From Candidatus Moraniibacteriota bacterium (GTDB taxonomy: Bacteria > Patescibacteriota > Minisyncoccia > Moranbacterales > UBA1568): DNA of 64,000 bases. The stretch is taken from contig CP064975.1 in assembly GCA_016699425.1 (NCBI GenBank), forward strand, positions 923,957 to 987,956, read 5' to 3'. Both the position numbers and the translations under genes were made by a program. The notes below the pieces were generated by a model that saw nothing but the letters and a program-made list of their open reading frames with translations, ran no database searches and was not told the origin of the DNA. This document shows, piece by piece, positions 3,825 through 60,210 of this stretch. The stretch's first letter is position 1, and every line of letters starts with the position of its first letter.

Positions 3825-4895
3825 CTACGCGCTCTCGAGTTTCTCCCGCAGGAAGGCGGCCGCCGTTTCCGGCTCGATCGAAGAGATCTCAATCCCCGTG
3901 GACAGCTCGAATCCTGCCCAGGTCGCTGTGTGCGGTGCGATCTCGATATGCCACTGAAAATGCGGGTATTCCTTGCCATCGCAAGGTGCGGTGTAGAGAT
4001 AAAAGTTGTACGCCGGATCGCCGAGACCACGATACAGTACTTGGAGCGCCTTCTGAAGGGCCTCACCGCAGGCGAATTTCTCCTCATCGGTAATGCGCTC
4101 GAAGTACGGGTTCGGACGCTTTCCCACGACCCACAATTCAAACGCGACCCGTGAAGCATACGGCGCAAAAACAACGAAGTCATCGTTTTCGAAGACGAGC
4201 CGTTTCTTTTTCTCGCGCTCATACTCAACCATTGTCCCGTAGACCCGCTGCCGGTGGCTCTTGTAGAAACGCTCCGCCCCCGAGAGAATCGACTCGACAT
4301 AGGGCGCGACTACCGGGATCGCCATCAGCTGCGAATGCGGATGCGGGACAGACGCCCCGGCCTCGTGGCCGTGATTATGGAAAATCTGAATATAATTCAC
4401 GCTCGCCTTGTTCATGAGCGAGAGGTAGCGATCCTGATAGGCATCGAGGAGTTCGGCCACTTGCCAGGTCTCGAGTTCGGCGATCGAGCGCAAGGCATCG
4501 CGCGTCACGATCACCTCATGGTACCCGACCGCTGACATGCCGAAATATGGACCGTCCGCGAGCGACTTGGGTCGCCCGTTCGAGCGCGACACGGCCGGAA
4601 ACTTATTCGGGAAGACACGCAAGCTCCAATCCCCGTCGGGACGCATATAGATGAGCATATCCTCCTCTTGGCCACTCGCTTTTGGGTCTTCGAAAATATC
4701 CGGACTCTCTATGCCCGTCACTCGGGGCGGCGTGACGAAATCATCCGGCCGCTTCCCTCGGGCGGTTGCGATGATGACCCAGTCCCCCGTCACGATATCC
4801 TGCCGGAGTTCTGATGTGGATCGCTGTTTTTTATCTTGTGACTTCTCTGCTTCGCCTGCCATGGCTTTTGTTCTTGTGTGTTTTTGGGTTCTCAC
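3825..4895 (-). CDS. galT: Galactose-1-phosphate uridylyltransferase family protein (HIT-like GalT)
   Basis: 356 aa. Two half-domains with an HPHSQ (HxHxQ-type) nucleotidyl-transfer motif and GalT-like spacing. Confidence 0.75.
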   Translation of the reverse strand: MRTQKHTRTKAMAGEAEKSQDKKQRSTSELRQDIVTGDWVIIATARGKRPDDFVTPPRVTGIESPDIFEDPKASGQEEDMLIYMRPDGDWSLRVFPNKFPAVSRSNGRPKSLADGPYFGMSAVGYHEVIVTRDALRSIAELETWQVAELLDAYQDRYLSLMNKASVNYIQIFHNHGHEAGASVPHPHSQLMAIPVVAPYVESILSGAERFYKSHRQRVYGTMVEYEREKKKRLVFENDDFVVFAPYASRVAFELWVVGKRPNPYFERITDEEKFACGEALQKALQVLYRGLGDPAYNFYLYTAPCDGKEYPHFQWHIEIAPHTATWAGFELSTGIEISSIEPETAAAFLREKLESA

Positions 4896-4920
4896 CGATG
4901 CCTCTGTCGGACATTTGTCC

Positions 4921-5685
4921 TCACTGGATCTTATACTGACCAGTCAGGAGTCGCCACTTCGTCTTGAAGAGATCAATCAAGACCTGGATGAAACCATTCG
5001 GACCCGTGAGACTCACCGTTGAGCCCTCCTCATTCATCCAGCGAACGGGGATCTGTTTGATCTTGAAACCAAGCTTCTCCGCTAGAATAATCAGTTCGAA
5101 ATCAAAACCGAAGCGGTCCACGACCATCCGACTCGCGACCGCGTCAGCCGCCTTGGCCGAGAGCGCCTTGAAGCCGCATTGCGTATCCGGGAAACTCCAG
5201 AGACCGAGCACAATACGGATGAGCCAGTTACCGCCTTCGCCCATAATTTCACGGTGACGGGGCTGATGGACTTGGATGAAGGAACCCTCGATCTTGCGCG
5301 AACCAATGACGACATCATAGCCTTCCTGAAAGAATGGAAGACAGGCATCGAGATGTGTGATAGCGGTCGAGCCGTCGGCATCGAGAAAGACCCGATACTC
5401 GCCCTTGCCCTCAAGCAGTGCCTGACGCACTACATAGCCCTTGCCATGATTCTCCGGATTATTGATGACGCGGAGGTTCGGAACCGTCAGCGCATAATTG
5501 CTCGCCACAGCGGCTGTGTTGTCGGGCGATCCATCGACGACGACGACGATTTCATACGTGAAGGACTTGCTCTTCAAATAACGGTCAATCTCGAGGAGGT
5601 TGTGCCCGATGCGCTCCCCTTCTTTGTATGCAGGAATCAGGACCGACAGATACGGGGTGGTCTCCATACGGACTAGCTCAATCAA
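4921..5685 (-). CDS. Family 2 glycosyltransferase (dolichyl-phosphate sugar synthase-like)
   Basis: 254 aa. Starts LSVLIPAYKE and contains VVVDGSPDNT and DAD motifs typical of GT2/DPM-synthase-like enzymes. Confidence 0.8.
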   Translation of the reverse strand: MIELVRMETTPYLSVLIPAYKEGERIGHNLLEIDRYLKSKSFTYEIVVVVDGSPDNTAAVASNYALTVPNLRVINNPENHGKGYVVRQALLEGKGEYRVFLDADGSTAITHLDACLPFFQEGYDVVIGSRKIEGSFIQVHQPRHREIMGEGGNWLIRIVLGLWSFPDTQCGFKALSAKAADAVASRMVVDRFGFDFELIILAEKLGFKIKQIPVRWMNEEGSTVSLTGPNGFIQVLIDLFKTKWRLLTGQYKIQ

Positions 5686-48002: not shown

Positions 48003-48251
48003 AGTATATAAAAAAGTATTGGCCCTGTGTCAGTTGTACTGTATCACGGAGCCAGGGTGAATCAAGCTGTGGCACGCTTAGACTTATAAGCACACCGATT
48101 GACCTTTCGGCTTTGTCATTAAACTTATGCTTTCTGTTAAATTTTTCGCTTTCTTACTGCTACAATGGGCCTGGATGCGTTCACCGTCAATATGTTAAGA
48201 ATATTGCAACAACAATCCGAGGGGGGGAACATCATCAAACAAGACTGATTT

Positions 48252-49970
48252 ATGAAGTTGCACAGCTTTGTAAAGAATTTTTCCTATCAACAATTTACTT
48301 ACCTGTTGGTAGGGCTCACTGTTCTTGTTTACCTAAACGGATTATTCGGCGAATTTCTTTCAGACGATCGGAAGCAAATCCTCGATAATCCGATCGTGCA
48401 TTCCTTTTCAAACTTCTTTACTTTTTTCCAAGGAAGTACCTTTGATGCTGGCGACGGGACTTTGGTCGGGCTGTTCTATCGTCCCTTGCAGACCATCTAC
48501 TTTTCTCTTCTTTGGAGCATTTTTGGAGCCCAGCCCGTCTTTTTCCATTTTTTTCAGCTCATCATTCATATCATCAATGGTCTTCTTGTTTTTTTTATTT
48601 TTAAGCACTGCTTTAGTAAAGTACTCGCTTTTTCCCTCAGCCTCATATTCATGATTCATCCAATGAATGTAGAGGCTGTTGCATACATATCGTCTTCAGG
48701 GGTCATACTGTCCCTTCTATTCGGCCTACTTGCATTCAGGATTGTTATCAGAAACAATATCAGGCCAAGGGATTACGCCCTACTTTCGAGTTTCTTGTTA
48801 CTCTCAGTCTTATCTCATGAAATTGGCTCCCTATTCATCCCCATTATCCTGTCATTTAAATTCTTATACGATAAGAAAAACGTATTCTCATGCGCTGGTA
48901 GTTTAGTATTTGTGGTGATTGTCTACGCCATCCTACGGTTTGGTGTTGGGCATGTCTATTTTCCTGAGGTTCATCAGTCGCCCATCATGACAATGTCTTT
49001 GATTGAAAGACTCCTGCACATTCCGAAAATTCTCATAACCTACCTCGGCACCTTCTTATTCCCGCTTCACCTGAGTTTTTCACAAGTCTGGACGATTCCA
49101 GAGATTGGATTCAGCAATTTTTACATACCATTGATGATTTTGCTCATTTTACTGGCTGGAAGCATTATCTTTACGCACCATCTCTACAAATCAAAAAGTG
49201 GCGAGTTTATCCTCTTCATATTTTTTGCGACTTGGTTACTCATAGGACTAATTCTTTTTATCCAAATAATTCCCGCTGAGCAAACCGTATCAGAGAGATG
49301 GTTCTATTTCCCGATGATAGGATTTCTCGGATTATTGGGGGTACTAGCGCAATACTTTATCGAAAAAAGGAATGGGGGTGTCATCAATTACCTGGCAATC
49401 ACCGTCTCTATCATTATTGTTCTCCTATCAGTCAGGACTATCGTGAGAAATAATGATTGGAGTGATGAGTTCACTTTAGCCAAACATGATATAAAGCACG
49501 ATCCAAATAACTATATACTTGCCAATGCGGTGGGCGCAGAATATCTCAGACGTGGCGACGCAAATAACGCAATCGGCTTCTTAGAGAAGTCTTCATCCCA
49601 CTTTACCGACGCCCAGACACTTAGCAATCTCGGTGCTGCGTACCTCATGCTGGGGAATTATTCAGAATCAAAAGAAGCATTGCAGAAATCCATAGAGATA
49701 AATGAGCTCAGCGACACTGTTACAAATATGGCATGGTTACTGGCAACGAGGGGTGATCCTGTAGAAGCGGAGGCTTTCATACGAAACAAACTCGACAAAT
49801 ATCCGCAGCTTTGGAAGCTTTGGATGGATTTGGCAATAGCAGAATATAAACTAAGTAAAAGAGATGAGGCATTACAGGCAGCTAAGCAAGCCTATTCATT
49901 GGCTCAAAACGGAGAAACGGCCTACCTCTATAACCAGATCAGTAAAAATCTCCCCTTGAAAATAGATTAG
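48252..49970 (+). CDS. GT39/PMT_2-like polytopic membrane glycosyltransferase with C-terminal TPR repeats
   Basis: 572 aa. About 11 TM helices in the N-terminal two thirds, then TPR-like helical repeats (...LGAAYLMLGNYSESKEALQKSIE...). The gene is markedly AT-rich (about 40% GC) compared with its surroundings. Confidence 0.7.
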   Translation: MKLHSFVKNFSYQQFTYLLVGLTVLVYLNGLFGEFLSDDRKQILDNPIVHSFSNFFTFFQGSTFDAGDGTLVGLFYRPLQTIYFSLLWSIFGAQPVFFHFFQLIIHIINGLLVFFIFKHCFSKVLAFSLSLIFMIHPMNVEAVAYISSSGVILSLLFGLLAFRIVIRNNIRPRDYALLSSFLLLSVLSHEIGSLFIPIILSFKFLYDKKNVFSCAGSLVFVVIVYAILRFGVGHVYFPEVHQSPIMTMSLIERLLHIPKILITYLGTFLFPLHLSFSQVWTIPEIGFSNFYIPLMILLILLAGSIIFTHHLYKSKSGEFILFIFFATWLLIGLILFIQIIPAEQTVSERWFYFPMIGFLGLLGVLAQYFIEKRNGGVINYLAITVSIIIVLLSVRTIVRNNDWSDEFTLAKHDIKHDPNNYILANAVGAEYLRRGDANNAIGFLEKSSSHFTDAQTLSNLGAAYLMLGNYSESKEALQKSIEINELSDTVTNMAWLLATRGDPVEAEAFIRNKLDKYPQLWKLWMDLAIAEYKLSKRDEALQAAKQAYSLAQNGETAYLYNQISKNLPLKID

Positions 49971-50014
49971 CCCATTTCATTTGCTCTTTTAAAAACCCGC
50001 AGCAGTATAAACAA

Positions 50015-51236: not shown

Positions 51237-52616
51237 TCAGCGTCGGTTGAGTTGGGTGTATCGGCTATCGAGTATCGAAAGGGCTTCGCTGACCGTCCGT
51301 TCACCGCGCACCACCGCGCTGATCGTCTCGACGAGCAGTCCCTCCGCCTGTTCAATATTCCCCGGCTTCCAACTCTTCGCGATGAGGTTGCCGGCGACGA
51401 ACGGACTGAGGACGACATCGTCCTTTTGAGCATCGATGAGATCTCGGCGCGCCGCTGGTTTCTTCGTCAGTTCGATATATTTTTTGGCTGGGTCGATGGG
51501 GAGAGGAAAGTCCGCCGTCTTCCCCGAAAAGGCATTGGCAAGCTGCAGCACCCCAGTCGGATGGGGCAAGGTCAAGTATGACAGGAACTGCCATGCCTCA
51601 TGCACCCGAGCCTGTTGGTAATTCTCGGTCGAGAGTGTCGCCTGTGGCCGCGAGAGATCAGCGACCTGAGTCTTGTTCTTGGTGACAGCGAAACCCCAAT
51701 AGTTGGCGAAGTTCACTGGGGCACGATCCCTGAATTGGGGCAGTGGCGCGATGGCAAAGTTCAGCTTCGCGTTCTTCTGTTTTATCGTCGAGTAGTGATA
51801 TGAGTAGTTGATCATCATCCCGAGCGTCCCCTCATAAAACGCATCAATCGAGTAGTGCTGCCGTTGGTTCCAGGTATAGGTCGGCAGACCGAGTCGGGCA
51901 AACTGCGTATAAAACTCGAGCGCCTGCCGATTCAGCTGGTCGCCGAAGTGCGGATCCGTTATCGGTGCCCCGTACTGCTGCATCAGATTGAGCAGGATAT
52001 CGGAAGAACGATTCACATTTTCGCCCGCCCCGAGCGCGATCGCGGCCTGATTGATATTGCCGAACTCATCCTGCTTGACGAGGAGTGGGACCATCGCGAC
52101 GAGCTCCTCCCAGGTCTTGGGTGGCGCCGTGATGCCCGCCGCATTGAAGATATCCTTGTTGTAATAGAGCGCGAGTGAATCGACCGACAGAGGGACCGCC
52201 ATCACCTGCTTGTCCGCGTTGAGGAAATCGTCGGCCACGACATCGACGAACGAGTCACGGACGGTCTTTTCGGTCAGGAAATTGGCCGGGGCCGGGATCG
52301 CCTTGTCAGCAAAACTAGAAAGCCAGGTATTGCGAAGCATGAAGATATCTGGCCCATTGCCCGAAGCCATCGCGTCGAGCAAGTCTTCCTTGTACGTCTC
52401 GGGAGCGATCTTGCGATACTTGATCTGCTTTACATAGGGGTTGAGCTTCGTGTATTCGTTGGCAATCTGATTGAACGCATCAGAATCATCAAATGTCCCC
52501 CAGATTTCAAGAGAAACCTCGTACGGTACAGAATCCGGCCCGCCACAACCAGAGAGCGTGAGCAGAGAACCACCGAGGAGAACGAGGGAGGCGAAGAGTG
52601 ATATACGACGTTTCAT
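51237..52616 (-). CDS. ABC transporter substrate-binding lipoprotein (extracellular solute-binding protein family 1, sugar type)
   Basis: Lipoprotein signal with lipobox (LLTLSGCGG). 459 aa with the SBP_bac_1-like two-lobe composition. No cognate permease or ATPase genes are adjacent. Confidence 0.8.
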   Translation of the reverse strand: MKRRISLFASLVLLGGSLLTLSGCGGPDSVPYEVSLEIWGTFDDSDAFNQIANEYTKLNPYVKQIKYRKIAPETYKEDLLDAMASGNGPDIFMLRNTWLSSFADKAIPAPANFLTEKTVRDSFVDVVADDFLNADKQVMAVPLSVDSLALYYNKDIFNAAGITAPPKTWEELVAMVPLLVKQDEFGNINQAAIALGAGENVNRSSDILLNLMQQYGAPITDPHFGDQLNRQALEFYTQFARLGLPTYTWNQRQHYSIDAFYEGTLGMMINYSYHYSTIKQKNAKLNFAIAPLPQFRDRAPVNFANYWGFAVTKNKTQVADLSRPQATLSTENYQQARVHEAWQFLSYLTLPHPTGVLQLANAFSGKTADFPLPIDPAKKYIELTKKPAARRDLIDAQKDDVVLSPFVAGNLIAKSWKPGNIEQAEGLLVETISAVVRGERTVSEALSILDSRYTQLNRR

Positions 52617-52619
52617 AGG

Positions 52620-53228
52620 CTAGTGTTTCTTCTCAACCAGAAAAGCGTAGTGGAAGCCACCGACCGGCGGCTCTTCGACGACCTCCAGTCCGGCATCTGC
52701 AATGACGCGTTTCATTTCATCTGGCTTGATGCGCAGTCCTCTTTCGGGACCGACAATCGATTCATCCGGGTCCCATTCGACGATGAGTGCTCGACCGGTG
52801 GGCTTCAGGATACGGGCCACCTCGCGCATGATGACGCCTTTGTCTTTGTTCTGGAGCAACACATCCTTGGCGATAACCCAATCGACAGACGCTGCGCCGA
52901 GACCGGATCCGTTCGCGCGCTCCAAATTGCAGCGCTGCGCGACAACATTGCCGAGTCCGAGCGTCTTGGCCTGGCTCGTGATCGCCTCCAGGGCTGAAGG
53001 CAAGACATCGAGCGCGTAGACCGTACCATCAGACCCGACCGCCCGGGCGAATTCGAACGAGAAGTGCCCTGATCCCGCGCCAAAATCTGCAACGGTGTCC
53101 CCCATGCCGACCGGTAAAGCGCGAATCACTACGCGCGGCTCGACGAAGGTCAGTGTTTTCGGTACATCCATAGTTTTGTTTGCTTTCTCTTCCTCTTCAA
53201 TTGTACAACGAAAGAAGCGGGTTTCCAA
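52620..53228 (-). CDS. Class I SAM-dependent methyltransferase
   Basis: Contains VADFGAGSGHFS (motif I) and ALDV (motif II), a Methyltransf_11/25-like fold. Confidence 0.85.
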   Translation of the reverse strand: METRFFRCTIEEEEKANKTMDVPKTLTFVEPRVVIRALPVGMGDTVADFGAGSGHFSFEFARAVGSDGTVYALDVLPSALEAITSQAKTLGLGNVVAQRCNLERANGSGLGAASVDWVIAKDVLLQNKDKGVIMREVARILKPTGRALIVEWDPDESIVGPERGLRIKPDEMKRVIADAGLEVVEEPPVGGFHYAFLVEKKH

Positions 53229-53375
53229 CGCTCCTCATGGCCACGGTTGCCCTCGAGCCATTCTTTCGCTAGACTGTGCTCGTTACAAATGGAAAGGTGG
53301 CCTCCGCCCAAGACGGACCGGCCTTGGGTCGGGAATGGTTCTGAATAGATTGTACTTGAGAAAATTTACGCAGCT

Positions 53376-53425
53376 GGAAAGGTGGCCGAGTCCCGCCAGA
53401 GGCGGGCAAGGGTTTAAGGTCTTGT
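53376..53425 (+). other. tRNA-Ser 5'-end partial duplicate fused to a GC hairpin
   Basis: GGAAAGGTGGCCGAGT matches the first 16 nt of the downstream tRNA-Ser at 15 of 16 positions. It is followed by a CCCGCC-AGAG-GCGGG hairpin. There is no T-arm or acceptor 3' strand. Confidence 0.4.
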
Positions 53426-53491
53426 TTGTTACCAATTTGTCGAAAATTGAAGAAACAATTTTTGGTATATAATTGAAATCCGCCTTAGAGC

Positions 53492-53576
53492 GGAAGGGTG
53501 GCCGAGTGGTTGAAGGCACACGCTTGGAAAGCGTGCATACCGCAAGGTATCGCGGGTTCGAATCCCGCCTCTTCCG
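53492..53576 (+). tRNA. tRNA-Ser (anticodon GGA)
   Basis: Cloverleaf with acceptor GGAAGGG/CTCTTCC, D-arm, anticodon stem CACGC/GCGTG with loop TTGGAAA, a long variable arm, and T-arm GCGGG-TTCGAAT-CCCGC. The acceptor stem is extended by the flanking agagc/gctct. No CCA is encoded. Confidence 0.85.
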
Positions 53577-53583
53577 CTCTGTG

Positions 53584-53670
53584 GCGGAGAAAGCCAGTCA
53601 CGTCGTTCGCGAACGACGTGACAAGCGTATGAGCAATCGTACCGGGGATTCGAATCCCCCTTTTTCCGCA
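53584..53670 (+). other. Non-canonical tRNA-like element (acceptor-like stem, T-arm and a 13-bp perfect palindrome)
   Basis: GCGGAGAA pairs with TTTTCCGC. The T-arm GGGGATTCGAATCCCC matches the tRNA-Ser 3' region at about 21 of 26 positions. A GTCACGTCGTTCG/CGAACGACGTGAC palindrome sits in the middle. No standard D or anticodon arm. Confidence 0.35.
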
Positions 53671-53853
53671 GAGAGCGGAGCGAACAAGGAATGGAGCACG
53701 CCAACTGCTTGGCGTGCGTGGGGGATGAGAATGACGGAGCACTGCCGAACAAGCATGAAATTTTATCGCATCAAACATTCAGAATTGAGGATAACGCGGG
53801 TGTTTTGAACGAACTATCCCGGATGGAATCACTACTGCAGCCAGCGTGATTTA

Positions 53854-55740
53854 GTGGTAAAATACAATTACAAAAGAAAACAAATGCTTTCTGCGAATCA
53901 TCATCAGGGCTTGCTTGTCTTTGAAAGAGGTGGCCGAGTGTATCTTTTTTGGCGTTCTGCCGAGCGCTCGATGCCGGGCATCTTCTCGGTCGAGAGTCCG
54001 GATGGCAGAAAATTCAAGAAAACACTTTCTTTCGTCGCTCTGTACCGTCCAGACGGCACCAAGACCGTGCTGGGTTCCTCGCCCGAACTCCGCGCCGGCT
54101 CGCTCGGCACCAAGACGCTGCTCAGCTTCCTCGATGAACGGAAGAACACACTCTTCGCCGCGATTGAAAAGGATGGTGCATGGAAGATCATTGCTGCCAC
54201 CGATAGCTTCCGTGCCCCGAGTGTCGTACTTGCTCCGAAGTCAACCCTGACCGCAAAAAGTCCGGCGCTCGCCTTCTTCAGCCGAGATGGCCGGATCATC
54301 TCGCTCGCCCGATCAACTGGCGACCTAACCCGCTGGAAGGACCTCGGTGATGTCCTCACTGTTCGGCCGAACAACTTTGATGCAGCGAATCTCTCTCCCC
54401 TGCATGCCGAAATCACTGTGCAAGGCACCCTCCTCGTCTACTCGGCTCAGGACCGCTCCGGCCAGATCGTCATCGGCGCCGCACTTTTCGATCGCAAGCA
54501 TCCGACGACCACATTGTGGCGCAGTGATCATGCTTTGTGGACCGCACCGATCGATACGCCACCAGACGCTGCGATCATCGGCGGAGGGAACATCGGGAAA
54601 TACTTCTCGATCTATCTCCAGTCAGCGGAACACGGCATTGAATCATACCCGATCGCTCGCTACTGGGAAACGTACCGGCAGCGCGTTCGACCGGCACTCC
54701 CCCTGCCGCCACGCATACCGGGTATACGCATCCCGATCGAGCGTTTCGCCCAAAATCCGATCATCGAACCAGTCGTCAGACATTCCTGGGAGGCCTTCGC
54801 GACCTTCAATCCGGCTGCCATCTGCCTCGACGGACGCATCCATCTCCTCTATCGGGCACAAGGCTATGACGGACAGTCCGTTCTCGGGTATGCCTCGAGC
54901 GGAGACGGTGTCCACATTGATGAACGACACGCCAACCCCGCCTTCGTCCCGTCTCGTGCTGCCGAGTCAGCGGCTCGGACACACGCACTGTCCTTTGTCT
55001 CCGGCGGTGGGACGGGCGGATGCGAAGATCCGCGACTCGTCGAAATCGATGGGGTGGTCTATCTCATCTATGTCGCTTTCGATGGCGCCAATCCCCCCGG
55101 TGTCGCGCTCACACATATTGCCAAAGCCGATTTCCTTGCGAAGCGCTGGGAGTGGGCCCGACCGAAGCTCATCTCGCTGCCGGGAGAAATTCAGAAAAAC
55201 TGGGTTCTCTTCCCAGAGCAAATCAATGGAAAATACGCGATCATCCACGGTCTGAGCCCTGAAATCCGGATTGAATATGTTGACAGCCTGAAAAGACTTG
55301 GGGATGGCCACTATATCCGAAGTCTCAAGTCGCATGGTGGCCGCGGCTATATCGAGCCGGCTCGGCTGCGTGCCTGGGACAATATCGTCCGTGGGGTCGG
55401 CGCACCACCCATCAAGACCGCGTATGGCTGGCTCGTGTTCTACCATGGTATGGATCTGCGGGACCCGGGTAAATACAAAGTCGGCGTCATGCTCCTCGAC
55501 CTCGAACACCCCGAGAAAATTCTCCGACGTGCCCTAGAACCGGTACTCGAGCCGGAAACCTTCTACGAAAACAGCGGCCACAAGCCTGGTGTCATCTATG
55601 TCTGCGGTGCCGTCATTAAAGACAAGAAGCTCCTCGTTTATTACGGAGCAGCTGATCGCAGTACGGGGGTCGCGATGGCCGATCTCGACTCCTTCCTCGG
55701 TGATCTCTTGAAAAATACGCCCCCACCCTCACGAAGATGA
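53854..55740 (+). CDS. Glycoside hydrolase family 130 (DUF377) protein with extra N-terminal domain
   Basis: 628 aa. The C-terminal about 320 aa show GH130 hallmarks (FNPAAI..., GCEDPRLVEIDGVVYLIY, GWLVFYHGMD...KYKVGVMLLD, LVYYGAADR). The N-terminal about 300 aa are beta-rich and may be a degenerate GH130 or other beta-propeller domain. Confidence 0.75.
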   Translation: MVKYNYKRKQMLSANHHQGLLVFERGGRVYLFWRSAERSMPGIFSVESPDGRKFKKTLSFVALYRPDGTKTVLGSSPELRAGSLGTKTLLSFLDERKNTLFAAIEKDGAWKIIAATDSFRAPSVVLAPKSTLTAKSPALAFFSRDGRIISLARSTGDLTRWKDLGDVLTVRPNNFDAANLSPLHAEITVQGTLLVYSAQDRSGQIVIGAALFDRKHPTTTLWRSDHALWTAPIDTPPDAAIIGGGNIGKYFSIYLQSAEHGIESYPIARYWETYRQRVRPALPLPPRIPGIRIPIERFAQNPIIEPVVRHSWEAFATFNPAAICLDGRIHLLYRAQGYDGQSVLGYASSGDGVHIDERHANPAFVPSRAAESAARTHALSFVSGGGTGGCEDPRLVEIDGVVYLIYVAFDGANPPGVALTHIAKADFLAKRWEWARPKLISLPGEIQKNWVLFPEQINGKYAIIHGLSPEIRIEYVDSLKRLGDGHYIRSLKSHGGRGYIEPARLRAWDNIVRGVGAPPIKTAYGWLVFYHGMDLRDPGKYKVGVMLLDLEHPEKILRRALEPVLEPETFYENSGHKPGVIYVCGAVIKDKKLLVYYGAADRSTGVAMADLDSFLGDLLKNTPPPSRR

Positions 55741-55772
55741 ACGTAAAAAAACTATCCTCCTAATCTCTCCTT

Positions 55773-57695
55773 ATGCCATTCTTCAAACGCTCGTTCGAAA
55801 ACCCAATCCTCGTACCACAGAATGACCTCCCTTGGGAGTCTGATGGGGCCTTCAATGGATCGGCCATTCGGGAGAAAGGCAAGACCCGTCTTCTTTATCG
55901 AGCGCAGTCTCTCCCGCTCCTCCACGACGATGGGCCGTGGCTCTCCCTTTCATCCATTGGCCACGTCGAGAGTACTGATGGGATACATTTCAAGAATCAC
56001 CGCCAGGTCATCAAGCCAGAACTGCACTGGGAACGCTATGGCTGCGAAGATCCCCGAGTCACAAAATGCGATGGCAAATATTATGTGTTCTATACAGCAC
56101 TCTCGGAATTCCCCTTCCGCGCCGAGGGCATCTCGGTCGGTCTCGCCATCACCAAGAACTTCAAAACGTTCGAGAAACATCACATCACACCCTTCAATGC
56201 GAAAGCGATGACGCTTTTCCCGGAGCGAATCGGTGGCAAACTCTGGGCGATACTCTCAGCCAATACCGATCAGCCACCTGCGACCATCGCGCTCGCTTCC
56301 TTTGACGATGAGACCGACCTCTGGGATCAGGCGCGTTGGCAGGCCTGGTATCAGGAATTAGACCAGCACGGACTCGAACTCCAGCGGACCGATAATGATC
56401 ACGTCGAGATCGGTGCGGCGCCGATCAAAACCAAGGAAGGCTGGCTGCTCCTCTATTCCTATATCCAGCAGTACCATACCGCCTCCCCCATTTTCACGGT
56501 CGAAGCCGTGCTCCTCGATCTCGAGAATCCTCGGAAAATCATCGCCCGAACTGATGTGCCACTCCTCGTCCCAGAGGAAGAGTATGAACACTACGGCAAG
56601 GTGAAGGATATCGTCTTCCCGACTGGAGTTGTGCTACGCGGTGACTCACTGTTTCTCTACTACGGTGCGGCTGACACAACCACCTGCGTCGCCATCGGGA
56701 GCTTGAAGACAATACTGAAGGAGATGCGATCCGACCCCAAACGGCGACCGCAATTTGAGCGCTATGGGCACAATCCCGTGCTCGCACCCGTCGCGAAACA
56801 TGACTGGGAAGCCAAAGCAGTCTTCAACCCCGCTGCTATCGACGTCCCAGGGAAAACAGTCATCCTCTACCGTGCGATGTCCGCCGATGACACCTCTGTC
56901 CTCGGGTACGCGGAAAGCAAGAATGGTTTCCGTATCAACCGCCGCCTCCCCGATCCGGTCTATATCCCCCGCGCGCCGTTTGAAACAAAGAACGCGCCGG
57001 GTAATTCCGGTTGCGAAGATCCCCGCCTTACGCGTTTCAACGATACCTACTACATGCTCTACACCGCGGTTGATGCCGCTACCCCGCCGCGCGTCGCGCT
57101 TACGACTATCCCAGTCGATGATTTCCTCGCCGAACGTTTCGAACGTTTCTCCGATCCAGTCCTCATCTCGCCGCCGGGCATCGATGACAAAGACGCCTGC
57201 CTCTTTCCGGAGAAAATCGGTGGCAAGTATGTCGTCCTGCATCGCATCCAGCCCTCGATCGACATCAATTTTCTCGATGACCTTGCCTTCGACGGCACCT
57301 CGCGATTTCTGATGCATCGTCCGTTCATCTTCCCACGGCGCGGCATGTGGGATAGCCGAAAGATCGGCATCAACACCGCCCCGATACGAACTAAAGCTGG
57401 CTGGCTCATCCTCTACCACGGTGTCTCTGAGTACGATGGTCACTACCGTGTCGGGGCGATTCTCCTAGATCTCGAAAATCCCGAACGCATCATCGGCCGC
57501 AGCCGGCACCCGCTCTTCAGCCCCGAGGAAGACTATGAACGCGTGGGGGTTGTCCCCAATGTCGTCTTCCCTTGCGGTGCGGTCGTCCGCGGGACCAAGC
57601 TCATCACCTACTACGGCGGGGCTGACCGTGTCGTCGGTGTTGCATCCATCGCGCTGCCCAAACTCTTGAAGTCCCTCCTCGCTGATGGCGTGTAG
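55773..57695 (+). CDS. Tandem-GH130 (two DUF377 glycosidase/phosphorylase domains) protein
   Basis: 640 aa. Two homologous halves each carry FENPIL/GHNPVL, (Y)GCEDPR, GWL(L/I)LY...Y and (Y)YGAAD/YYGGAD, the mannoside-phosphorylase-type GH130 motifs. Confidence 0.82.
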   Translation: MPFFKRSFENPILVPQNDLPWESDGAFNGSAIREKGKTRLLYRAQSLPLLHDDGPWLSLSSIGHVESTDGIHFKNHRQVIKPELHWERYGCEDPRVTKCDGKYYVFYTALSEFPFRAEGISVGLAITKNFKTFEKHHITPFNAKAMTLFPERIGGKLWAILSANTDQPPATIALASFDDETDLWDQARWQAWYQELDQHGLELQRTDNDHVEIGAAPIKTKEGWLLLYSYIQQYHTASPIFTVEAVLLDLENPRKIIARTDVPLLVPEEEYEHYGKVKDIVFPTGVVLRGDSLFLYYGAADTTTCVAIGSLKTILKEMRSDPKRRPQFERYGHNPVLAPVAKHDWEAKAVFNPAAIDVPGKTVILYRAMSADDTSVLGYAESKNGFRINRRLPDPVYIPRAPFETKNAPGNSGCEDPRLTRFNDTYYMLYTAVDAATPPRVALTTIPVDDFLAERFERFSDPVLISPPGIDDKDACLFPEKIGGKYVVLHRIQPSIDINFLDDLAFDGTSRFLMHRPFIFPRRGMWDSRKIGINTAPIRTKAGWLILYHGVSEYDGHYRVGAILLDLENPERIIGRSRHPLFSPEEDYERVGVVPNVVFPCGAVVRGTKLITYYGGADRVVGVASIALPKLLKSLLADGV

Positions 57696-57867: not shown

Positions 57868-58251
57868 TCACTTCTTCCGCAATGGTTGGGCATGCCGCCA
57901 CTGTACGACGCATGGCTCCGGTTCGTCCAAGTGGTGACGCACTGTCACACCTCGACCATCGGCCGACAGACAAAGCTGAGTCCCTCTGACTACCTGAAAA
58001 CCGTGGTCATCATCCGGTCCCTCGTGGCACGTGATTGCGCCCTCCAGATGGATGTAGCAGTCACCGCCACCCATCTCACCAACGTATGGTCCAGAGACAT
58101 CAGCGGACTCACCGGGCTGGATGGTAACGTCCTCGGCATAACCTTGTTCAACGTGGTAACCGAAAGCGATGATGGGATACGATGTCTTGTTAATGACCTT
58201 CATGCTTCTACCTCCCTCGATGTAGGTTGGATAATCTGTCCTCGAGCTCAA
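57868..58251 (-). CDS. Hypothetical small protein
   Basis: Track ORF of 127 aa. A likely start is the internal ATG (MKVINKTSYPII) at about 58203. No recognisable motif. Confidence 0.4.
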   Translation of the reverse strand: MSSRTDYPTYIEGGRSMKVINKTSYPIIAFGYHVEQGYAEDVTIQPGESADVSGPYVGEMGGGDCYIHLEGAITCHEGPDDDHGFQVVRGTQLCLSADGRGVTVRHHLDEPEPCVVQWRHAQPLRKK

Positions 58252-58510
58252 GGACTTATCAGACTACTTACTTTAGCAACTTTAGTCAATACATGATGTT
58301 TGAATCCCATCCGTGATAACAATAAATAAGGCTGTTACAGCCCTTCTTTGAGAGTATTCCCTCTAGTGAACAAACTTAGGACTTTGGATTGGAGAAGTAT
58401 TGGGAAGATGGTGGGAGAGATGGGGACAGTTTTAGCGTAAAAAAGGGAGTGGGTATTGCCGTGTTAGGCTCACCACTCCTTTGTTCGTCTCGGCCGCTGC
58501 CACGCTTGCT

Positions 58511-58648
58511 TTAGGCAAAAATGCAGTTAGCGACCCAGATGAGGGCGCCTAGAACGCCCGATATGAACGCCATCAGTCCGACGTTCTTTTCCTGCCACGC
58601 TTGGCGCAGAGAAATCTTTGGGGTACACAGATACGCGTTCGGTATCAT
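58511..58648 (-). CDS. Candidate small membrane peptide (45 aa)
   Basis: Found by manual translation. GAGAGGAG Shine-Dalgarno sits 6 nt upstream of the ATG. A single C-terminal TM helix (GLMAFISGVLGALIWVANCIFA). Too short for the ORF track. Confidence 0.3.
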   Translation of the reverse strand: MIPNAYLCTPKISLRQAWQEKNVGLMAFISGVLGALIWVANCIFA

Positions 58649-58806
58649 GCTCAACTCCTCTCGTAAAAAATGATTGCTTTACCCTAACCAATTCACCTCC
58701 TACTCATGTCCAAACTGGACTGAACATACTATCAGAGTTTTACATAAAGTCAACAGAGGGCAACAAAAAAGGTTCCACTTTAGAGCATTACCCATCTCGA
58801 AATAAT

Positions 58807-59511
58807 TCAGCGCCTTAACATCTTTTGAAAAAGGGGCTTAAACATATCATCCTCGATATCAATGTGAAGCTCATTCCGATTCACTCTTTCACAAAACTCT
58901 ACTGGCACATCCTGAATAAGAGCGAGTGGTTGTTTTTCGTCTCCCTCGCCCATAAGGAGAACTGCCGCGGTTGCCAAACTATCCGCCACATCAGTACTCG
59001 AGAACTTGAGCTTTCGACCATAGATATCCGGTTTCCCTCGGTAATCTCTGAGACCGCGAAAGCCCGCATACCCCAGCGCTATTCCGACCACACCGGAGCG
59101 GAGCGGCATCGTTCTGCTATCCGTCAAAATGATCCCCAGGTTTTTCACTCTGTAATATTTCTGTAGCTTCATGCGGATGAGAGAGGCAGATCGAAAGCTA
59201 TCCTTTGGTAACAGAATGAGTTTGCCATTGGCATTTGATTCATCGATGCCGGCTGAGGGCAGGATCATCCCATCTTTGATAGTAAGCCAAACGTATTTCG
59301 TCTTCAGTGCAAAGCTACTTTCAGCACGGATCGCTTCCTCTTTCGTTTTGGAATCCTTGATAATCACCGTTCTTCTTTCTGCAAGAGCAACTATTTTGGA
59401 AGTAATAACAATGACTGACTTCTCAGGAATTTTTTCAATATAAGAAGTTATAAATGGTAGAAGATTCTCTCCTTCCAAAAACGTCCGAGTTTTTATGGCT
59501 TGAGTATGCAT
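58807..59511 (-). CDS. CofE-like F420-0:gamma-glutamyl ligase family protein
   Basis: 234 aa. Contains SKIVALAERR, AGIDESNANGKLILLP and TDSRTMPLRSGVVGIALGYAGF, the CofE family pattern. The gene is AT-rich. Confidence 0.7.
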   Translation of the reverse strand: MHTQAIKTRTFLEGENLLPFITSYIEKIPEKSVIVITSKIVALAERRTVIIKDSKTKEEAIRAESSFALKTKYVWLTIKDGMILPSAGIDESNANGKLILLPKDSFRSASLIRMKLQKYYRVKNLGIILTDSRTMPLRSGVVGIALGYAGFRGLRDYRGKPDIYGRKLKFSSTDVADSLATAAVLLMGEGDEKQPLALIQDVPVEFCERVNRNELHIDIEDDMFKPLFQKMLRR

Positions 59512-59528
59512 ATAGATGAAGGTACTGA

Positions 59529-60167
59529 TTATTGTTCATTATCTTTGAGGAGATGAATCCCTATGTAGGAAAGGGGCGTATAGAGCATCCCCATTGCGAC
59601 CTTATACAACCACCAGGAGAAAATAATGCTCACCAACGTGGAAGCGCTGTAGACACCAGCAAAGGCAATGACCATAAAAATAGTCGTATCCAGCAATTGC
59701 GACCACAGATTAGACAGAGATGAGCGGAGCCAGAAATACTTTATTTTCAGCTTGTTTCGAAAGAAAAAGAAGGAGAAGACATCTTGATACTGTGCGATCA
59801 AGAATGCGGCGAGTGAAGCAAGAGCAATCCGTACCGAAACCCCGAAGACTTGATCATAGCCATCCCGTACCCAGCCCCCAGCCTCAGACCAGGGCATAAC
59901 AAGCGACACAAGTGAATATGCGATGAACAGTGCCGTACTCAAAAACCCAGCGAGAACGAAATATTTTGCCATGCTCTTCCCATATACTTCGCCGATTACG
60001 TCATTCATCAAGAACACGATGGGGAATGAAAACACTGCGACAGAGAGATGAGACCCAAAAATGAAGGGCATAATTTTCAGGCCCAATGTGTTGGCCGCGA
60101 ATAATGAAGTCAGATATATGGCCAGTGCGATTATAAGCTTTCTGAACGAGCGGTCAGTAAGAATCAT
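59529..60167 (-). CDS. yhhQ: Queuosine-precursor transporter family protein (YhhQ/VUT, DUF165)
   Basis: 212 aa with 6 TM helices. Contains FPIVFLMNDVIGEVYG, the VUT family signature. The gene is AT-rich. Confidence 0.78.
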   Translation of the reverse strand: MILTDRSFRKLIIALAIYLTSLFAANTLGLKIMPFIFGSHLSVAVFSFPIVFLMNDVIGEVYGKSMAKYFVLAGFLSTALFIAYSLVSLVMPWSEAGGWVRDGYDQVFGVSVRIALASLAAFLIAQYQDVFSFFFFRNKLKIKYFWLRSSLSNLWSQLLDTTIFMVIAFAGVYSASTLVSIIFSWWLYKVAMGMLYTPLSYIGIHLLKDNEQ

Positions 60168-60180
60168 ATTTTAAGAGAGT

Positions 60181-60210
60181 AAAGAATAAATAAAACCGCC
60201 TGACAGGCGG
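60181..60210 (-). terminator. Hairpin plus T-run immediately upstream of the yhhQ start (terminator or attenuator)
   Basis: Minus-strand reading shows CCGCCTGTCAGGCGG followed by TTTTATTTATTCTTT. It ends about 15 nt before the yhhQ ATG. Confidence 0.45.

Follow-up and report, generated by a model that had tools for sequence, protein, structure and literature searches.

The stretch of DNA analysed here, 64,000 nucleotides (nt) of contig CP064975.1 from a Candidatus Moraniibacteriota bacterium and called the window in what follows, carries two adjacent plus-strand genes which encode proteins of the glycoside hydrolase family GH130. Gene A (53854..55740) codes for 628 amino acids (aa) and gene B (55773..57695) for 640 aa, in agreement with the original prediction of a pair of neighbouring plus-strand genes of about 630 aa each. 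Both were delimited as open reading frames (ORFs), B also by its Pfam matches. Gene B starts 32 nt past the stop codon of gene A; the true start of gene A may be the ATG at 53884 instead of the GTG at 53854. Each protein consists of two beta-propeller domains, which we call A_N (53854..54729) and A_C (54730..55740) in the first protein and B_N (55773..56738) and B_C (56739..57695) in the second. With somewhat more confidence than doubt, we regard A and B as an operon-like cytoplasmic module for the processing of beta-mannosides, conserved across the candidate phyla radiation (CPR) and containing one canonical phosphorylase site.

The Pfam model of the family, PF04041 (Glyco_hydro_130), has a gathering cut-off of 26 bits, and three of the four domains lie far above it: A_C with 148.8 bits, B_N with 153.4 and B_C with 196.4. 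Searched as a whole, gene B shows two GH130 stretches which sum to 345 bits. The two GH130 domains expected in B and the C-terminal one expected in A were thus found, whereas A_N gave no Pfam hit. The best NCBIfam model for all three domains is that for beta-1,2-mannobiose phosphorylase (NF052550), which scores 205 bits with A_C, 175 with B_N and 245 with B_C. None of these reaches the equivalog cut-off of 450 bits, and the 416 bits obtained with the whole of B come only from summing both domains. With scores about half the cut-off, the three domains must therefore be regarded as members of the family and not as equivalogs. In this they differ from Teth514_1788 and Teth514_1789 of Thermoanaerobacter sp., the GH130_6 beta-1,2 phosphorylases which are the best sequence and structure matches of every domain.

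It had to be considered that the repeated domains were an artefact of assembly collapse, or the outcome of a recent duplication. Both are ruled out: the protein identity between the halves of B is only 36%, the DNA-level repeats in the region are merely 25-41 nt long, 60-85% identical and code for shared protein motifs, and the GH130 pair architecture recurs in more than 80 independent assemblies. The other protein identities are 43% between A_C and B_C and 30% between A_C and B_N. A phylogeny of the domains was built by neighbour joining. All domain types come out as monophyletic (46-50 of 50 bootstraps), A_C and B_C being sisters in 46 of 50, while B_C and B_N group together in none of the 50; Teth514_1788 and Teth514_1789 join A_C plus B_C in 34 of 50, and B_N branches outside. 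This rejects a recent internal duplication of B. Since B_C groups with A_C and not with B_N, B is an ancient fusion of long-separated paralogues. The “clear tandem duplication” seen earlier in B is therefore right as to the presence of two GH130 domains but not as to their history. CAZy sequences with a GH130-GH130 arrangement are rare and uncharacterised; Li et al., 2020 (PMC7660257) had four of them in their data set. They have the same two-module architecture as B, but in each of those proteins both modules belong to the same sequence cluster (PMC7660257), whereas B_N and B_C are long diverged and have differing active-site signatures.

The N-terminal half of A, which had been described as a beta-rich domain and has no Pfam hit, is a degenerate GH130 propeller. 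When family profiles were compared with hhalign, A_N matched A_C, B_N and B_C with 96.6-98.1% probability over about 250 columns, the match to B_C having 98.1% probability and an E-value of 9.6e-14. The AlphaFold model of A_N has a mean predicted local distance difference test score (pLDDT) of 88.9 and a predicted template modelling score (pTM) of 0.86. In Foldseek its top 33 matches are all GH130 structures, ahead of other propeller families, with best values of E 3e-11, TM 0.65 and 15% identity. Where the catalytic Asp would stand, all 114 family members have a hydrophobic residue, and the position of the neighbouring Glu is variable. For this reason A_N, judged from its residues, is a degenerate GH130 pseudo-enzyme domain which has lost the catalytic Glu-Asp. 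Gene A has 113 full-length homologues of about 625 aa, and those with a taxonomic name are Moraniibacteriota.

The roles of individual residues were mapped through HMMER alignments to Teth514_1788, Teth514_1789, Lin0857 and Uhgb_MS. The last two are GH130_4 beta-1,2-mannobiose phosphorylases (Uhgb_MS, Lin0857; PDB 9ERG, 5B0P) which supplied catalytic, phosphate and beta-1,2 marker residues, the reference residues in Uhgb_MS being K184, R202, R242 and E136-D137. None of the domains of A and B aligns to the 48-residue lid loop of these GH130_4 enzymes; the significant matches start after the loop. The roles of the proton-donor Asp and of the Asn and Asp of the -1 subsite have been described (PMC4264767). 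A Glu next to the proton donor, together with a Lys in the +1 subsite, marks beta-1,2 specificity (PMC4599007, PMC7660257). Phosphate is bound by K184, R202 and R242 in Uhgb_MS (PMC12814180) and by the His of an Arg/His pair (PMC7660257), which in UhgbMP is R168/H231 (PMC7660257). Conservation was followed in 114 A-family and 112 B-family proteins and in a second sample of about 72-81 domains from 80 species-representative genomes.

In both samples A_C, B_N and B_C show no variation at the Asn, the Glu-Asp, the Lys and the C-terminal Asp. The catalytic Asp is thus present in three of the four domains, which we call the live domains, and missing from A_N. The live domains also carry the beta-1,2 marker, as neither the motif CEDPR nor the Lys varies in them. 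They have the same -1 subsite, Glu-Asp and Lys as Teth514_1788 and Teth514_1789, and in B_C the phosphate site is the same as well. The complete phosphate-binding set is found in B_C only; in A_C and B_N it is altered. The four GH130-type domains of the original prediction can be kept in the sense that all four propellers are of GH130 type, but one of them is degenerate, and because only one has a canonical phosphate site it is an overstatement to speak of four phosphorylase-type domains.

The marker residues bear directly on the substrate. The module could act on another beta-mannoside, such as Man-beta-1,4-GlcNAc from host N-glycans, beta-1,3-mannosides or a mannosylated small molecule, given that specificity is predicted from two marker residues only, that the clade is distinct from characterised enzymes (at most about 40% identity) and that all scores are under the equivalog cut-offs. 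We find this quite unlikely. A_C, B_N and B_C have the Glu/Lys pair without exception, whereas characterised beta-1,4 enzymes have Tyr/Arg and beta-1,3 enzymes Glu/Arg at these places (PMC7660257, PMC4599007), and the nearest characterised relatives are beta-1,2 enzymes.

In B_C the residues in question are N352, E415-D416 (D416 codon 57018-57020), K473, H490-R491, K530, H549 and D618. All of them, K530 included, are invariant in the 112 B-family members. The His-Arg and the His are so in 80 of 80 genomes as well; the second basic position is Lys in 75 of the 80 genomes and Arg in the other 5. B_C therefore has the Arg/His pair taken as diagnostic of phosphorylases (PMC7660257). Its best solved relatives are 9fj8 (E 5.7e-58) and 7fip (E 4.4e-53). 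By the published criteria, applied to its sequence, B_C is a canonical beta-1,2-type GH130 phosphorylase.

A_C retains the -1 subsite (N319, E391-D392 with D392 codon 55027-55029, K448, D601) and has a remodelled anion site consisting of H465-G466, V512-R513 and H531. In this remodelled form H465 and H531 are kept, the phosphate-site Arg is replaced by Gly, Asn or Ser, and the second basic position is Val, Ile or Met followed by an Arg one residue later. With its Arg replaced, its His kept and an Arg shifted by one residue, A_C falls outside the Arg/His rule for phosphorylases (PMC7660257). Two perfectly covarying subtypes can be told apart, a canonical one with the signature HR..RK (13 of 72) and a remodelled one (59 of 72), to which the A_C of the window belongs with the signature HG..IVR..H. 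The canonical form, which has no shifted Arg, was seen in loci L041, L057, L064, L066, L067, L069, L074 and L080-L083. Judged from this signature, these lineages may preserve the A_C site as it was prior to remodelling.

B_N likewise keeps the -1 subsite (N28, E92-D93 with D93 codon 56049-56051, K144, D301). Aligned with Teth514_1788 and Uhgb_MS, it has other residues in place of the phosphate-site Arg and His (S162, H210, S229). The census shows the same for the domain type: Arg is changed to Ser or Thr, His to Ser (S229), and an N-T-D loop is inserted after the Arg position. D166 never varies, and T165, D209 and E212 hardly do. The second basic position, H210, is flanked by D209 and E212 and is His in 63 and Gln in 17 of 81 domains. 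B_N thus lacks the Arg/His pair of phosphorylases (PMC7660257). AlphaFold models B with confidence as a unit of two domains (pLDDT 93.2, pTM 0.85), and in this model H210 and E212 of B_N fall at the beta-strand positions that K530 and G532 take in B_C, for which reason E212 should point into the site equivalent to that of phosphate.

This pattern resembles that of GH130 hydrolases. The GH130_3 beta-1,2-mannosidases BT3780 and BACOVA_03624 (PDB 5A7V, 3QC2) retain, like B_N, the Asp and the Glu along with the beta-1,2 Lys; in them as in B_N the basic phosphate residues are gone and conserved carboxylates are found in that region (PMC4599007). In the BT3780 type such carboxylates serve as catalytic base, and going by region and strand register those of B_N may correspond to its Glu227 and Glu268. 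B_N differs from BT3780 and BACOVA_03624 in being cytoplasmic and fused to a phosphorylase, and its sequence is not closer to the hydrolases: it scores 103 bits with the BT3780-type model NF058598, which has a cut-off of 550, against 175 bits with the phosphorylase model. From its residues B_N is predicted not to be a phosphorylase and to resemble GH130 hydrolases.

One may ask whether A_C and B_N are enzymes at all, or whether B_C is the single active site and A_N, A_C and B_N are lectin-like or scaffold propellers which provide oligomer interfaces and extended subsites. B_C is the only domain with the published phosphorylase signature (PMC7660257) and A_N is demonstrably degenerate. GH130 enzymes are dimers or hexamers, and loops from the partner subunit shape the active site of Uhgb_MS (PMC12814180); the model of B, with its pTM of 0.85, also predicts a fixed arrangement of the two domains. 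Against this, A_C and B_N keep the -1 subsite and the proton-donor Asp invariant over hundreds of sequences from many phyla, while A_N displays the pattern of decay to be expected once catalysis has been lost. The replacement residues are themselves conserved (D166 in B_N, nearly so T165, D209 and E212, and R513 in A_C), which points to selection on a functional site. We therefore consider a single active site unlikely, although it deserves some weight.

A and B appear to be cytoplasmic. By simple hydropathy (Kyte-Doolittle, window 19, not SignalP) neither has a signal peptide or transmembrane-like segment; the highest value in the first 30 residues was 0.18 in A and -0.26 in B. Phosphorylases are expected in the cytoplasm, where they use cytoplasmic phosphate, and the lack of a signal peptide is one of the criteria for them (PMC7660257).

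The closest homologues of A, of B and of a binding protein encoded nearby are all from Candidatus Moraniibacteriota, which shows that the CPR-like nature of the genome had been guessed correctly. The spread of the module was studied in a scan of one genome per GTDB species, in which relatives of B were found in at least 545 stretches, 80 of these loci being kept for analysis. They span Moran-, Sung-, Staskawicz-, Levy-, Brenner-, Campbell-, Uhr-, Wolfe-, Colwell-, Magasanik-, Gottesman-, Zambryski- and Ryanbacteria and Paceibacterota, and include a few bins labelled archaeal or Omnitrophota. Homologues of B are 56-89% identical across the CPR, and between CPR phyla the identity of B is 50-60%. 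The number of GH130 domains, which had been thought unusual for a reduced genome, is thus nothing out of the ordinary; the module is widespread.

Of the 80 loci, about 70 have a gene of the A_C type directly before B, and the exceptions are mostly contig ends. This upstream gene includes A_N in Moraniibacteriota and some other lineages; elsewhere it is a single-domain gene of 340-450 aa. The flanking genes otherwise differ from locus to locus. In four metagenome proteins of 971-1110 aa (P0063, P0189, P0192, P0194) A_C, B_N and B_C are fused in that order, and P0189 also bears a remnant of A_N. The fusions suggest that A and B act together. The arrangement resembles that of Teth514_1788 and Teth514_1789, which are also adjacent genes for cytoplasmic paralogues and are linked to the metabolism of mannose-1-phosphate (Man1P) (PMC4264767). 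Those are single-domain proteins of about 300 aa, both canonical, whereas the window has four domains in two proteins with one canonical site, and it is without the cluster of ABC (ATP-binding cassette) transporter, GH5 and guanylyltransferase genes found at the Thermoanaerobacter locus.

The neighbours of the module were surveyed in 48 diverse loci, where 150 genes lie within two genes of it. The most frequent is a mannose-6-phosphate isomerase of the cupin type (17 of 150), whose gene typically starts about 8 nt after B in the lineages having it. Also recurrent are HAD-type phosphomannomutases (6-8), PGM/PMM-type mutases (3) and a cytidylyltransferase-like nucleotidyltransferase (3), the last often fused to phosphomannomutase. 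No transporter or binding-protein family recurs among these 150 neighbours. The isomerase and phosphomannomutase genes tie the module to Man1P, mannose-6-phosphate (Man6P) and fructose-6-phosphate. Fusions of a nucleotidyltransferase with a eukaryote-type (HAD) phosphomannomutase adjoin the module in L038, L055, L061, L076, L077, L079 and L084, which hints at a route from Man6P to nucleotide-mannose within one protein in some CPR lineages. At the slot occupied by mannose-6-phosphate isomerase in other lineages, the window has no recognisable gene of mannose metabolism; a 127-aa ORF on the minus strand (57868..58251), without a Pfam match, converges there on the end of gene B.

The original prediction of a locus of the mannoside phosphorylase type is borne out by the catalytic Asp in three domains and by the isomerase and phosphomannomutase neighbours in other CPR bacteria. 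We picture its function as follows. B_C would phosphorolyse beta-1,2-mannooligosaccharides to alpha-mannose-1-phosphate, which phosphomannomutase and mannose-6-phosphate isomerase would then pass into glycolysis as fructose-6-phosphate. B_N, with carboxylates at the position of phosphate, would work independently of phosphate. It would most likely be a hydrolase and act on a substrate or a chain length beyond what the phosphorylase can finish. A_C, with its relocated Arg, would use another donor, acceptor or chain length, and A_N would be a structural partner. The four propellers would form one assembly, linked covalently or non-covalently, which takes the place of the homo-oligomers of single-domain GH130 enzymes.

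Several points weigh against this picture. The function of the clade is deduced from sequence, and the live domains score 175-245 bits where the equivalog cut-off is 450. Activities in GH130 and in the related family GT108 switch via subtle or distal changes (PMC10913872, PMC12814180), which makes mechanisms predicted from residues weak. The placing of D166 and E212 in a nucleophile site comes from the beta-strand register of a model alone, and the GH130 hydrolases so far characterised are often secreted, unlike the cytoplasmic B_N. The physical association of A with B is deduced solely from gene order and fusion proteins. The window itself holds no gene for phosphomannomutase or mannose-6-phosphate isomerase, and neither a source of beta-1,2-mannan nor an importer has been identified for this organism.

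A rival reading is that the mannan is made inside the cell. In a cycle of this kind the live GH130 paralogues would both build and degrade an intracellular beta-1,2-mannan: A_C or B_N would be a mannosyltransferase or priming enzyme using nucleotide-mannose, and B_C would remobilise the polymer as Man1P. Such a cycle has been described for mannogen in Leishmania, where the GT108 paralogues MTP1-7, five-bladed propellers with a GH130-like active site, divide the synthesis and the phosphorolysis of intracellular beta-1,2-mannan between them (PMC12814180, PMC10913872). GT108 is a separate CAZy family and no sequence match to the domains of the window was seen, but the layout of its active site is the same as in GH130, and GH130 beta-1,2 phosphorylases including Teth514_1788 show a measurable (weak) transferase activity with GDP-mannose (PMC12814180, PMC10913872). 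The enzymes are cytoplasmic with no transporter linked to the module; the module is a CPR-wide core, with 50-60% identity between phyla, which suits housekeeping better than foraging for a rare glycan; and the nucleotidyltransferase-phosphomannomutase fusions which adjoin it in seven loci suggest a local synthesis of nucleotide-mannose.

It must be said, though, that the substitutions R202A and R202H abolish the transferase activity of Uhgb_MS (PMC12814180) and that A_C and B_N are without this Arg. Beta-1,2-mannan has not been reported from CPR cells, and mannose-6-phosphate isomerase and phosphomannomutase as neighbours suit catabolism equally well. We hold such a cycle to be improbable, if worth keeping in mind. 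The corresponding proposal by analogy, a CPR reserve of beta-1,2-mannan with a primer- or transferase-like A_C, a hydrolase-like B_N and the phosphorylase B_C, wired to phosphomannomutase and mannose-6-phosphate isomerase, is in our opinion an outside chance of the same order. If true, it would be the first carbohydrate-storage cycle in ultra-small CPR symbionts and a bacterial counterpart of the GT108 system of Leishmania.

The region contains a second unit, on the opposite strand to the operon-like GH130 module. It consists of a gene for a class I S-adenosylmethionine (SAM) methyltransferase (52620..53228, minus strand; Methyltransf_31 at 2.1e-18) and, directly downstream of it with a gap of 3 nt, a gene for a lipoprotein with the fold of a substrate-binding protein (51237..52616, minus strand). 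The latter has an N-terminal hydrophobic segment with the lipobox LSGC, matches SBP_bac_1 at 7.9e-31 and shows weak matches to MalE and UgpB. It adjoins the GH130 module but is not part of it: the lipoprotein gene diverges from gene A, and between them lie the methyltransferase gene and a tRNA-Ser gene. The lipoprotein had been placed just upstream of the GH130 genes, and the distance of 1.2 kb to gene A agrees with this, but not the strand or the genes in between.

The original prediction took the lipoprotein as the orphan sugar-binding part of a scavenging pathway, capturing external mannosides for an ABC importer whose membrane parts are missing, located elsewhere or replaced. The protein is indeed a sugar-type SBP_bac_1 lipoprotein encoded close to gene A, and no ABC permease or ATPase domain was found in the scanned ORFs (at least 150 aa) of the window, so that the clustering expected of ABC sugar uptake is not seen; the GH130 cluster of Thermoanaerobacter does hold an ABC transporter (PMC4264767). 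The comparison with other genomes tells a different story. The order methyltransferase followed by binding protein is kept in L086, L087 and L088, with neither GH130 nor ABC genes nearby, and the pair is about 55% identical in Minisyncoccota and other Moraniibacteriota. Only close relatives (L006, L007, L010, L029) have the binding-protein gene in the vicinity of the GH130 pair, and in them some 4 kb of unrelated genes of variable content lies between the two units, for instance genes for GTP cyclohydrolase II, an orotidine monophosphate (OMP) decarboxylase-guanylate kinase fusion and a GT2-methyltransferase. In more distant genomes (L001-L005 and the 48 diverse loci) no binding protein stands beside the pair. 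As a partner of the GH130 genes the binding protein was therefore rejected: its gene runs on the other strand and is conserved together with the methyltransferase gene, and it does not recur in the 48 loci. Its orphan state is genuine and conserved, but unrelated to the GH130 genes. Scavenging by way of this lipoprotein is thus very unlikely in our judgement. Because the methyltransferase-lipoprotein pair is kept without ABC genes, the binding protein may not be a transporter component at all.

The tRNA-Ser(GGA) gene between the two units (53492..53577, plus strand) was found by ARAGORN and scores 59.2 bits with the Rfam tRNA model. It is followed at about 53622-53670 by a fragment resembling the 3' half of a tRNA, seen in blastn comparisons with relatives and having the T-arm GGGGATTCGAATCCCC. 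The segment 53584..53668 folds as a stable tRNA-like structure (-45.7 kcal/mol). In L007, L010 and L029 the matches to the first 41 nt of the tRNA and to the 3'-half fragment adjoin each other. The DNA after the tRNA varies, from 4 kb of unrelated genes in the relatives to 280 nt in the window. The region looks like the trace left by integration or excision at a tRNA gene.

The remainder of the window contains the housekeeping genes rpoB, rpoC, gyrB, recA, ftsZ, ftsA and ftsK and the glycolysis genes FBA, TIM and GAPDH. Next to these glycolysis genes, at 3825..5685 on the minus strand, are a galactose-1-phosphate uridylyltransferase-like gene (PF01087 + DUF4921) and a GT2 glycosyltransferase gene, which could be a further entry point for sugar-1-phosphates in the same genome. 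Against a background of 55-57% GC there are two islands of low GC content. One, at 48200..50000 (40-43%), encodes a multi-pass membrane protein of 572 aa with C-terminal TPR repeats, and the other, at 58400..60200 (44-47%), an F420-0:gamma-glutamyl ligase-like protein and a transporter of the Vut_1 family; both may have been acquired horizontally. A scan for promoters and terminators around the genes was uninformative, with results close to the expectation from shuffled sequence, and exact-sequence look-ups for the binding protein and B of the window matched no record.

CPR bacteria have very few carbohydrate-active enzymes, and in one complete Microgenomates genome two of the five glycoside hydrolases are GH130 (PMC7143001). 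In the literature GH130 in CPR/Patescibacteria receives passing mentions only (e.g., PMC7143001), tandem GH130 proteins appear only as the CAZy count in PMC7660257, and we found no prior description of the link to the upstream A_C gene or of the wide spread in the CPR. The module is an architectural variant of a known family, common in the CPR rather than unusual. For annotation this means that a label of four phosphorylase domains should be avoided and that the neighbouring binding protein should not be read as the transporter of these proteins. With one canonical and two remodelled sites side by side, the module offers a test of what determines phosphorylase, hydrolase and transferase activity in GH130 propellers, and A_N clearly exemplifies the decay to a pseudo-enzyme in one and the same protein. 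Since CPR bacteria have so few carbohydrate-active enzymes, and since the gene order is conserved and fusions occur, the GH130 module probably has a central part in the acquisition or storage of hexose by these organisms. What makes it interesting is how its active sites divide the work, and what it may tell us about the carbon metabolism of the CPR.

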